Below, piece by piece: positions 46,497 to 46,760 of a stretch of 64,000 bases of DNA. The stretch lies in contig CAWGLD010000004.1 in NCBI GenBank assembly GCA_963823335.1, positions 68,382-132,381 on the forward strand, written 5' to 3'. A program made the translations under genes and the position numbers. Origin of the DNA: an uncultured delta proteobacterium (GTDB taxonomy: Bacteria > Desulfobacterota > Desulfobacteria > Desulfobacterales > B30-G6). Positions within the stretch are counted from its first letter, which is position 1; each line of letters begins with the position of its first letter. The notes under the pieces are model-generated. The model was not told where the DNA came from, did no database searches, and saw only the letters and a program-made list of their open reading frames with translations.

Positions 46497-46760
46497 AAGA
46501 AGGATTCAAGGATTCCAGGGGTCCAGGGTTCGAGTGAGATGAAGTGAGGCATCAGCTAAATGCTTAAAAATTGTAAAGAGTTAAAAGTTGTGGATTGGAA
46601 ACACAGACGATGATATCCGGTGTTTTGGATTATATGAACAAGAAAAAGCTTCAGGGATTAAGAGAGGAGCTTGGGGATGTAGAGAGAATGCTAAAAGCGA
46701 TGATCAAATCCCTGGAAAACAAACACTTCAATCCTTGAATCCTGGACTCCTTGAACCCTT
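46497..46760 (+). mobile_element. IVS-like palindromic element, family B (octamer arms) with a four-helix-bundle gene remnant
   Basis: Left arm AAGAAGGATTCAAGGATTCCAGGGGTCCAGGGTTCGAGTGAG (46497-46538) pairs imperfectly with CACTTCAATCCTTGAATCCTGGACTCCTTGAACCCTT (46724-46760). Confidence 0.7.
46568..46738 (+). pseudogene. 3' fragment of a four-helix-bundle (23S rRNA IVS protein family) gene
   Basis: The open frame reads ..[53 protein letters not shown], matching the last two helices of PF05635-type proteins; the N-terminal half is absent. Confidence 0.6.

Follow-up and report, generated by a model that had tools for sequence, protein, structure and literature searches.

A probable immobilised ISL3-family MITE with an intervening-sequence-type cassette in a pilus-operon spacer of an uncultured delta proteobacterium

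The stretch of DNA analysed here (64,000 nucleotides of contig CAWGLD010000004.1 from an uncultured delta proteobacterium, hereafter the window) holds at 46494–46794 an element that is probably a decayed and immobilised miniature inverted-repeat transposable element (MITE) of the ISL3 family. Its sole cargo is a cassette of the type found in the intervening sequences (IVSs) of 23S rRNA genes, in which a PF05635 gene is bracketed, from start to stop codon, by inverted arrays of the 8-nt unit RAGGRKTC. The element occupies a ~290-bp spacer between the stop of an mshM-like gene (46496) and the start of an mshE-like gene (46813). Cassettes with these arms are called family B below and a second set in the window, with 7-nt units, family A; compared loci carry the prefix L and proteins the prefix P. 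The parts of the window copy, including a terminal inverted repeat (TIR) and the remains of a target-site duplication (TSD), are as follows.

46494–46499, plus strand: left junction TAAAAG, a left-TSD remnant fused to element-internal TAAAAG
46500–46536, plus strand: left arm, four 8-nt units AAGGATTC AAGGATTC CAGGGGTC CAGGGTTC, then GAGTG
46537–46559, plus strand: linker, holding a ~21-nt insert GATGAAGTGAGGCATCAGCTAA specific to short-form copies; canonical copies have GAGTGA(T/A)ATGCTT
46560–46613, plus strand: start codon and out-of-frame tail, ATG at 46560 leading to MLKNCKELKVVDWKHRR and a stop, from translation and alignment with L085
46577–46738, plus strand: open C-terminal remnant frame, 53 codons and TGA, end of helix 3 and helix 4 of the PF05635/TIGR02436 bundle
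46724–46760, plus strand: right arm, CACTT, then units CAATCCTT GAATCCTG GACTCCTT GAACCCTT
46760–46786, plus strand: ISL3-type right TIR that folds as a small hairpin, TTCTCCCAAC tt GTTGGGAGAA GAACT
46786–46794, plus strand: right TSD copy (T)AAAGAATA, aligning with TAAAGATGG of the empty site in L088

A first-pass annotation of this DNA had ended the element at 46760 and so lacked the ISL3-type TIR beyond that point (46760–46786); also absent from it were the 8-bp TSDs of sister copies and the orthologous sites that are empty or hold a solo arm. It is these three that give the mechanism of mobility and the status of the window copy as an immobilised fossil. Directly 3' of the right arm stands a perfect 10-bp hairpin (46760–46781), and the reverse complement of the right TIR reads AGTTCTTCTCCCAACAAGTTGGGAGAA, with the terminal GG changed to AG and one mismatch in the 14-nt core. 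Four short-form sister copies from the same study (L082–L085), whose arms are 100% identical to those of the window copy, have in common ~30 nt beyond the left arm (GGATCATCTCCAAAAGAGTTGATC...) and, beyond the right arm, the hairpin (...TTCTCCCAACTAATTGGGAGAAGATCC), the two being mutually inverted. Their flanks are unrelated (PilZ and dihydroorotate dehydrogenase (DHO_dh) genes; M78 peptidase and IS110 genes; pseudopilin (GspH) genes). Many further family-B cassettes are flanked directly by TIRs of 24–27 nt, GGWTCWTCTCCMAAWKAGTTG.

An exact scan of the JGI metagenomes with this 21-nt TIR motif returned at least 120 stretches. Among the matches listed, four kinds of cargo lay inward of the motif: family-B arms (in some stretches together with the gene, in others alone), a GC-rich MITE of ~290 nt, an AT-rich MITE of ~287 nt, and transposase genes. 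The motif bounds each end of a complete autonomous element of 1326 bp in one stretch (L139), and the 400-aa transposase of this element matches DDE_Tnp_ISL3 (PF01610) at E 1.2e-76 together with HTH_Tnp_ISL3 and the ISL3 zinc ribbon; tblastn found further autonomous copies (L142, L174, L179, L183 and others), and those four have perfect TSDs. The TSDs around TIR-bounded units are 8 bp long and AT-rich. Across 59 such units the outer 8 nt are identical in 17 and one position off in 12 more (at least 7/8 in 29), against control means of 0.3 (8/8) and 1.0 (at least 7/8), with maxima of 4 and 5, when partners were permuted. Family B contributes perfect TSDs at L006 (ATAAATTT), L028 (AAAATATT), L082 (GCCTATCT), L114, L128 and L193, all of them outside the ISL3 TIRs and none at the arms. 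Inverted repeats of the GGCTCTTC type and direct repeats of 8 bp have been published for ISL3 elements (PMC6305408). From the shared TIRs and 8-bp TSDs it follows that family-B elements with these ends are ISL3-derived MITEs carrying a hairpin-gene cassette. The 21-nt terminal motif, the 8-bp AT-rich TSDs, the small size (~220–580 bp) and the lack of a transposase are common to them and to ISL3 insertion sequences and MITEs; the difference lies in the cargo, which in family B is a structured, protein-coding IVS-like cassette and not anonymous DNA.

The window copy is ~290 bp long and has the bundle-gene remnant as its only coding sequence, in keeping with a small MITE that lacks a transposase. 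It has a TIR at its right end only, where L082, L085 and others have both, and what is missing is the ~30-nt outer-left TIR (GGATCATCTCCAAAAGAGTTGATC...) that all four aligned sisters carry. With one TIR it no longer qualifies as an ISL3 MITE and cannot be mobilised.

The same TIRs enclose, or have received, other elements. A ~290–310-nt MITE with a conserved GC-rich core, GGGCCCGGAAGGAAAGGCAGATTGCGCCGCAAGCATCGGCGGGA, was seen in L094, L100, L119, L121, L130 (2741–3049), L131, L137, L146, L147, L156 and L160; the core looks like a structured RNA, and no Rfam match to this MITE was found at E<=1. An unrelated AT-rich MITE of ~287 nt (GGTCAAGATTAAGGCTTAAATC... / GGTAGAAAAATGATTTACC...) is present in L090, L104, L106, L126, L133, L140, L144 and L151, some copies having perfect 8-bp TSDs. 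In L083 (~1700–1815) and L084 (~1700–2534) an element with an IS110-family transposase (PF01548/PF02371) interrupts the family-B right TIR within its hairpin loop, after TTCTCCCAACT, and in L084 the remaining TIR and a 7/8 TSD resume 1.1 kb downstream of the insertion; IS110-type elements may target family-B right-TIR hairpins. A TIR-like match at 35760 of the window was rejected, the sequence around it being ordinary.

Inward of the ISL3 end, the first-pass annotation had described an imperfect stem of about 37 bp built of 8-nt units, and both features hold up. The arms form a 37-nt inverted repeat, 78% complementary, with 187 nt between them, and the periodicity was found in both; the right arm has three in-register unit copies at 8-nt spacing. 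A 20-mer from the left arm, with a chance expectation of 0.00 in the window, has two minus-strand matches in the right arm with 2–3 mismatches. The left arm is identical in L082–L085 and its unit skeleton recurs in ~30 loci of other genomes, while family-A arm sequence was looked for in the element and none was present, as had been stated. RNA of the plus strand (46490–46790) folds at −97.8 kcal/mol (z −5.9), a stability reached by 0 of 100 dinucleotide shuffles, and RNA of the minus strand at −78.6 kcal/mol (z −4.5), the arms pairing with each other in both folds. As in an IVS, terminal inverted repeats, paired in the minimum-free-energy structure, enclose the rest of the element. The 21-nt linker insert is present in the window copy and L082–L085 and absent from L002–L004, L086 and L087.

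Judged by homology of its translation, the frame between the arms is indeed what remains of a four-helix-bundle gene (PF05635/TIGR02436). It had been read at first as one open frame at 46568–46738, but a stop codon stands at 46574–46576, and the peptide given joins two frames across a 1-nt difference. The cause of the frame break is a deletion of one base between 46588 and 46589, seen when the window copy is aligned with the intact sister L085 (P0003). The 5' part keeps ~10 conserved codons, MLKNCKELKV, followed by out-of-frame VDWKHRR and a stop, and the last codons of the remnant, HFNP and stop, fall within the right arm; four helices are not encoded in one open frame. The remnant matches TIGR02436 at E 6.7e-4 (19.8 bits, cut-off 24, positions 68–109 of 109) and PF05635 at E 0.17 (12.6 bits, cut-off 33.8, positions 72–105 of 106), both below threshold. 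Two related NCBIfam models also match it at their C-termini, and many database proteins that bear PF05635 align with it at 73–89% identity (E 1e-13 to 1e-18), among them P0014 (PF05635 at E 1.5e-28, 99.6 bits; 80% identity to the remnant, E 3.8e-16).

The claim of a bundle-gene remnant stands; the accompanying claim that the N-terminal half is lacking does not stand as worded. Full-length and short-form genes share their N-terminal start, the short form keeping the first ~10 and last ~50 codons, with the junction at ~46589–46595 and ~65 codons gone (helices 1–3 in large part). Because both gene ends are kept, the short form arose by internal deletion and not by N-terminal truncation. A search of 5.8 billion proteins with the remnant gave 129 matches of 34–91 aa, at up to 100% identity and many with PF05635, which form a series from near-full forms to short forms (MLKNYKELK(V)...).

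Dozens of the entries found (P0001–P0120), 34–91 aa long and named "hypothetical protein" in NCBI, ENA and JGI, are family-B cassette fragments called from internal start codons, and many such short hypothetical proteins can be explained in annotation in this way. One 42-aa fragment is labelled an HxlR-family regulator by its source.

It is very improbable that the region encodes a functional small protein, whether the 42-aa ORF ending in HFNP (P0001 in public annotation) or a two-helix mini-bundle. There are dozens of 34–60-aa entries with this C-terminal sequence at 70–90% identity, as a functional protein would lead one to expect, and a short-form ORF of 55–59 aa is intact in L082–L085. In the window, however, the 1-nt deletion puts the proper start out of frame, and the 42-aa call begins at an internal Met within the stem-loop. 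Related copies show many different, independent truncations, which is a pattern of decay, and half of a four-helix bundle is unlikely to fold by itself.

Relatives of the cassette were sought in one genome per GTDB species, with the best 80 of 576 kept. In the ~30 closest loci (Desulfosarcina, Desulfobacteraceae, Desulfatiglandales, Nitrospiraceae, Thermodesulfovibrionia, WOR-3 and others), an ORF of ~121 aa (121–123 aa at full length) is bracketed by arms as in the window. Full-length family-B ORFs are preceded by 2–7 units nAGGnnTC and then GAGTGAAATG, and their end, K-H-L-N-P-stop, overlaps an array of GAnnCCTn units. The unit consensus R-A-G-G-R-K-T-C, which is partly circular since the regular expression used to extract arms fixes GG, is found on both arms and recurs across Desulfobacterota, Nitrospirota, WOR-3 and others. 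The full-length relative in L009 (123 aa) matches PF05635 at E 9e-39 (132.4 bits) and the pentameric Xanthomonas XCC0516 structure 2gsc at E 4.8e-24. The loop holds a complete S23p/PF05635 ORF in full-length sisters and a frameshifted, internally deleted remnant in the window. A census over all loci counted 27 full copies, 7 short ones, 12 with other partial deletions and 4 N-terminal or middle fragments, which is a decay series. The PADLOC defence models gave no match to full-length proteins of family A or B.

Other copies with these arms are therefore abundant and include full-length ORFs, and none of the outcomes that the first-pass annotation had named as contrary to its reading (no similarity of the frame to the family, no other copy with these arms, pairing no better than in shuffled controls) was obtained. 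Its further statement, that the stem-loop and not the arm sequence is what these elements conserve, is borne out across lineages for the architecture; within family B the arm sequence is conserved too (R-A-G-G-R-K-T-C).

Some family-B loci have further peculiarities. GC-rich palindromic mini-insertions (e.g. CGCCCGCTACAAAAA..GCGGGCG) split single arm units in L006, L010, L033 and L034, giving nested small repeats. In L015, from a metagenome-assembled genome of Thermodesulfovibrionia, a cassette without ISL3 TIRs lies between direct copies of a sequence of at least 28 nt, ATGCTTTCAAAAATTCTCAGCGCAACCC, at ~1835–1870 and ~2350–2388; this sequence is the 5' end of the downstream gene, and in L011 (~2300, a Nitrospiraceae genome) the cassette lies directly upstream of the same gene start.

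The history of the window copy can be read from orthologous mshM|mshE junctions, which were reached by a protein search with the C-terminal half of MshM; three have the same gene order. In L088 (62% MshM identity) the spacer is empty and 52 nt long, ...AAAACC TAAAGATGG AAAATAGGCGAGATAAACTGTG, and the empty site reads ...AAAACC TAAAGATGGAAAATAGG at the left junction. L086 and L087 (73% and 71% MshM identity) keep a solo left arm and the first 17 nt of the ORF, joined straight to AAATAGGCGAG. The left junction, ACACG TAAAAG AAGG, is identical in the window, L086 and L087. Past the right TIR, the window sequence (T)AAAGAATAAAACAAGCGAG aligns with the empty site from TAAAGA on, and the left junction and right flank of the window have only TAAA(A)GA in common, matching the empty site TAAAGATG. 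The family-A element that lies between mshE and the T2SSF gene is likewise absent from L088.

On this evidence, ISL3 transposition in trans would have placed the element in an ancestral genome at the 8-mer TAAAGATG; this sequence and the mshM stop codon (TAA, 46494–46496, within the insertion target) overlap. The left TIR would then have been lost by deletion between the duplicated TAAAG and the internal TAAAAG, before the three lineages split; with that loss the copy would have been frozen, and independent decay in each lineage may have followed. L086 and L087 retain the canonical GAGTGATATGCTT junction in their relic. The window copy has instead the 21-nt insert and the short-form deletion, so that its interior was probably overwritten, most likely by gene conversion through the repetitive arms. 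A 1-nt deletion would have been the final step, breaking the remaining frame. Having neither left TIR nor reading frame, the copy is a fossil, and the locus is inert and immobilised.

At the RNA level, neither a sigma-70-like promoter nor an intrinsic terminator consensus was found on the plus strand between 46300 and 46950, and neither hairpin is followed by a T-run, on which ground a reading of either as an intrinsic terminator was rejected. The msh operon transcript therefore probably runs through the element. RNase III needs two helical turns, and the stem of the window copy, at 37 bp or more, exceeds this. The stem is thus a predicted RNase III substrate of the kind cut in 23S rRNA IVSs, and a cut there would split the transcript into an mshM and an mshE part. 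By analogy with the Coxiella IVS, the element is a likely RNase III site between the two genes. We infer that no protein is made from it, and it is most likely neutral baggage and not a required part of the operon. The empty (L088) and solo-arm (L086, L087) orthologues argue that the operon can do without the stem.

Several points weigh against the reading of the window copy as a fossil ISL3 MITE with an IVS-type cargo. A tblastn search with the L139 transposase found no ISL3 transposase in the window. The left TSD is a match of 5–6 nt only and overlaps element-internal sequence, and with a single TIR left the ISL3 insertion of this copy is reconstructed, not observed. Gene conversion has to be invoked to reconcile an old shared junction with near-identity to dispersed short forms, and independent insertion at the same site, though less likely, would be an alternative. 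Cassettes without ISL3 TIRs exist (e.g. L011–L015, and family A in the window), so ISL3 is not the sole route of spreading. RNA-level function has no specific support either. The first-pass annotation had proposed to compare G:U-compatible with disruptive mismatches on each strand as a guide to the strand under selection, and this gave no signal. Arm pairs from 32 loci had no strand bias in folding energy (sense −65.8 and antisense −64.3 kcal/mol, Wilcoxon p 0.27) or in G:U counts (207 vs 199), in a test that was blunt in that the search windows took in flanks; the mismatches of the window copy itself (3 G:U-compatible in sense, 1 in antisense) are too few to interpret. Own-arm pairing exceeded cross-locus pairing only slightly in Watson-Crick identity (0.884 vs 0.844, p 4e-5), with p 0.13 for RNA energy per nt, and covariation cannot discriminate here, since arms with a common unit skeleton all pair with one another. 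Rfam gave nothing, rRNA included, in the window at the gathering threshold and nothing at E<=1 in 46400–46850.

A further reading, in which the hairpin is a domesticated, host-selected cis-regulatory RNA of the msh operon, serving as an RNase III site or mRNA stabiliser that sets the mshM:mshE ratio, we consider quite unlikely. Its sense orientation inside the operon with no promoter or terminator of its own, its very stable stem and the second hairpin element after mshE would suit such a role, and the insertion is old and partly kept in three lineages. Correia and ERIC-type repeats modulate the stability of neighbouring mRNAs and offer a precedent. Yet L088 has the same operon with the spacer empty, L086 and L087 keep one arm and are unable to form the stem, and no strand bias was seen; the arms moreover show no adaptation to this locus, since copies at unrelated loci have identical ones.

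Family A extends the comparison from one element to an architecture. Its arms, of 7-nt units GAACRTC / GAYGTTC, form at least 15 arrays in the window, at the following sites.

4881–5052, 10117–10157, 10861–11103, 32647–32816, 36690–36838, 48532–49005, 57800–58626 and 61270–61542: family-A arm sites

The only intact family-A gene (48567–48944) encodes 125 aa and matches TIGR02436 at E 7e-26. Copies without an ORF keep both ends and the first codons (..AAGATGAAGAAACAG..), the same end-preserving internal deletion as in family B. Family-A and family-B ORFs alike begin immediately downstream of the left arm and terminate at the right arm or close to it, and the family-A ORF and full-length family-B proteins both match PF05635/TIGR02436. 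BLASTP gave no pairwise alignment between the two sets of proteins, so that their being of the same type is drawn from profiles and architecture only. The element at 46494–46794 had been presented as a second lineage of the same element type as family A; it does belong to such a lineage, and a very distant one. The window copies of family A have no ISL3 TIR and, by inspection, no obvious TSD at the arm ends.

The pattern is wider still. Free-standing PF05635 genes with sufficient flanking sequence were compared at 77 genome loci, and in ~62 of these (~80%) the strongest ungapped inverted repeat shared by the two flanks beats all 20 shuffles. The arms in that set consist almost without exception of arrays of 7- or 8-nt units specific to the clade. 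PF05635 genes of L035–L081, 50–60% identical to family B and coming from Planctomycetota, Verrucomicrobiota, Bacteroidota, Elusimicrobiota, KSB1 and others, lie in inverted unit arrays too. Units outside families A and B are as follows.

Planctomycetes: unit GGGACTW
Opitutales and some Bacteroidota: unit CACAAAGG
Phycisphaerae: unit GGCACTW / GGSATTR
L080: unit TGGCAAY
Elusimicrobiota: unit GGGGATA

Some arrays are strongly asymmetric, with more than 15 units on the left and 4 on the right in L040 and L052. The slippage- or repeat-based origin that had been suggested for the arms fits this variable unit number (2–7 in family B, and the long left arrays of L040 and L052) as well as the variation of the Coxiella heptamer (PMC4990558). 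The pattern also raises the possibility that each protein clade recognises its own repeat unit.

There are two further unit types. In L085 (2290–2830), ~700 nt from the family-B short copy, a 122-aa PF05635 gene of a third lineage lies between GTAAGCT-type 7-nt arrays. Within a family-A loop of the window, 4925–5005 forms a periodic hairpin of GATAGCT/CATAGCT units (CTCATAGCTGATAGCTGATAGCTCATAG ... CAGCTATCAGCTAAT), which suggests nested remnants of yet another lineage.

Given such breadth, the cassette might be mobile by itself, with the arms as its own ends, the bundle protein (an Avd/S23p-like, nucleic-acid-binding pentamer) as a mobility or maintenance factor and the ISL3 TIR incidental. 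The bracketed architecture at ~62 of 77 free-standing PF05635 genes across phyla, most without ISL3 TIRs, is what this would predict, as are a unit sequence that tracks the protein clade and the at least 15 family-A arrays in the window that lack an ISL3 TIR, their ORF-less copies keeping both ends. The left boundary of the window copy, too, falls exactly at the first arm unit. Ralph and McClelland, as cited in PMC4990558, put forward the IVS ORF as a component of mobility, which points the same way. We nevertheless regard self-mobility as unlikely: a helical bundle of ~120 aa has no catalytic domain, the perfect TSDs of family B lie outside the ISL3 TIRs and not at the arms, the right TIR of the window copy still abuts target sequence, and no target duplications were seen, by inspection, at family-A arm ends.

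On a tentative view, which we put forward with some doubt, free-standing PF05635 genes within inverted, clade-specific 7–8-nt arrays may form a widespread and undescribed class of selfish cassettes, of which the 23S rRNA IVSs would be members that landed in rRNA. The pentameric protein might recognise its own arrays as RNA or DNA, and the cassettes might spread by hitch-hiking on transposons (here through ISL3 TIRs), shedding the interior and keeping the ends as MITEs do. The open-access literature gave no account of PF05635 genes bracketed by repeat arrays outside rRNA, nor of a link to ISL3.

The closest known systems are the 23S rRNA IVSs with an S23p/PF05635 ORF (helix 45 of Coxiella burnetii; Leptospira), in which a long inverted-repeat stem surrounds a bundle ORF of ~120 aa, as in the cassette. 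Both have a protein of the PF05635 family, short tandem repeats before the start codon and reductive decay of the ORF. In the Coxiella IVS, GACAGAT heptamers stand directly before the start codon in a copy number that varies between strains, and the 28-bp terminal stem is cleaved at its middle by RNase III, with loss of the Shine-Dalgarno region of the ORF (PMC4990558). IVSs are regarded as selfish, and "remnant of a transposition event" and "mobile element whose ORF aids mobility" are listed as untested hypotheses of their nature (PMC4990558). The window element differs in location, lying in a pilus-operon spacer and not in helix 25 or 45 of a 23S rRNA gene. No rRNA motif was found in 208 related loci, a weak negative from a scan with conserved 16S/23S motifs. 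The cassette units are also 8 nt long (RAGGRKTC), and its sister copies carry ISL3 TIRs and 8-bp TSDs, which are undescribed for IVSs.

The Correia repeats of Neisseria and the ERIC/IRU and REP/BIME repeats are likewise short, TIR-bounded intergenic repeats of operons that are co-transcribed and form long RNA hairpins, and Correia hairpins are RNase III substrates. These repeats have no known sequence relationship with the cassette, they are not known to carry or derive from a bundle gene, and their stems are not known to be arrays of 7–8-nt units. The Avd proteins of diversity-generating retroelements (bAvd-like, PF22296) have their fold and family neighbourhood in common with the family-B protein, and PF05635 has been discussed together with such Avd proteins (PMC10053308). 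A full-length family-B protein matches the bAvd-like model at E 6.5e-6 (27 bits, cut-off 40), which is below threshold. An identity as Avd was rejected on this match, on the pilus-gene neighbours and on the lack of an intact protein in the window copy; no reverse transcriptase, template or variable repeats, or target gene were found near the window element.

The origin and spread of IVSs and the role of the S23p ORF have been standing questions since the early 1990s. An IVS-type cassette outside rRNA, with sisters that have transposon ends, TSDs and a cognate transposase family, makes the transposition hypothesis of IVSs directly testable, and the window locus adds an empty orthologous site and graded products of decay. 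The large and functionally unassigned PF05635/TIGR02436 family, these results suggest, is best read together with its flanking repeat arrays. Taken as a whole, the observation of the first-pass annotation was essentially right apart from one misread base, its interpretation being right in outline and incomplete.

The domains of the neighbouring genes, read off the gene table of the containing contig (ENA ERZ25039603 contig_10409), agree with the earlier statement that the element fills the gap from the mshM-like stop to the mshE-like start.

44757–46496, plus strand: mshM/ExeA-like AAA_22 gene (PF13401), from the ORF list, the contig gene table and the orthologues in L086–L088, which end at the same position
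46813–48525, plus strand: mshE-like pilus ATPase gene (PF05157 MshEN and PF00437 T2SSE), from the ORF list and the contig gene table

The next operon spacer, between the T2SSF gene and the gene that follows it (50263–50577), holds a different inverted repeat of 42 nt, 81% complementary and 231 nt apart (ATAAAATCTCTCCGCGATTTTATTTGGCGCG... / ...CGCGTCAAATAAAATTGCGGAGCAATTTTAT), so that three successive spacers of the pilus operon contain hairpin elements.

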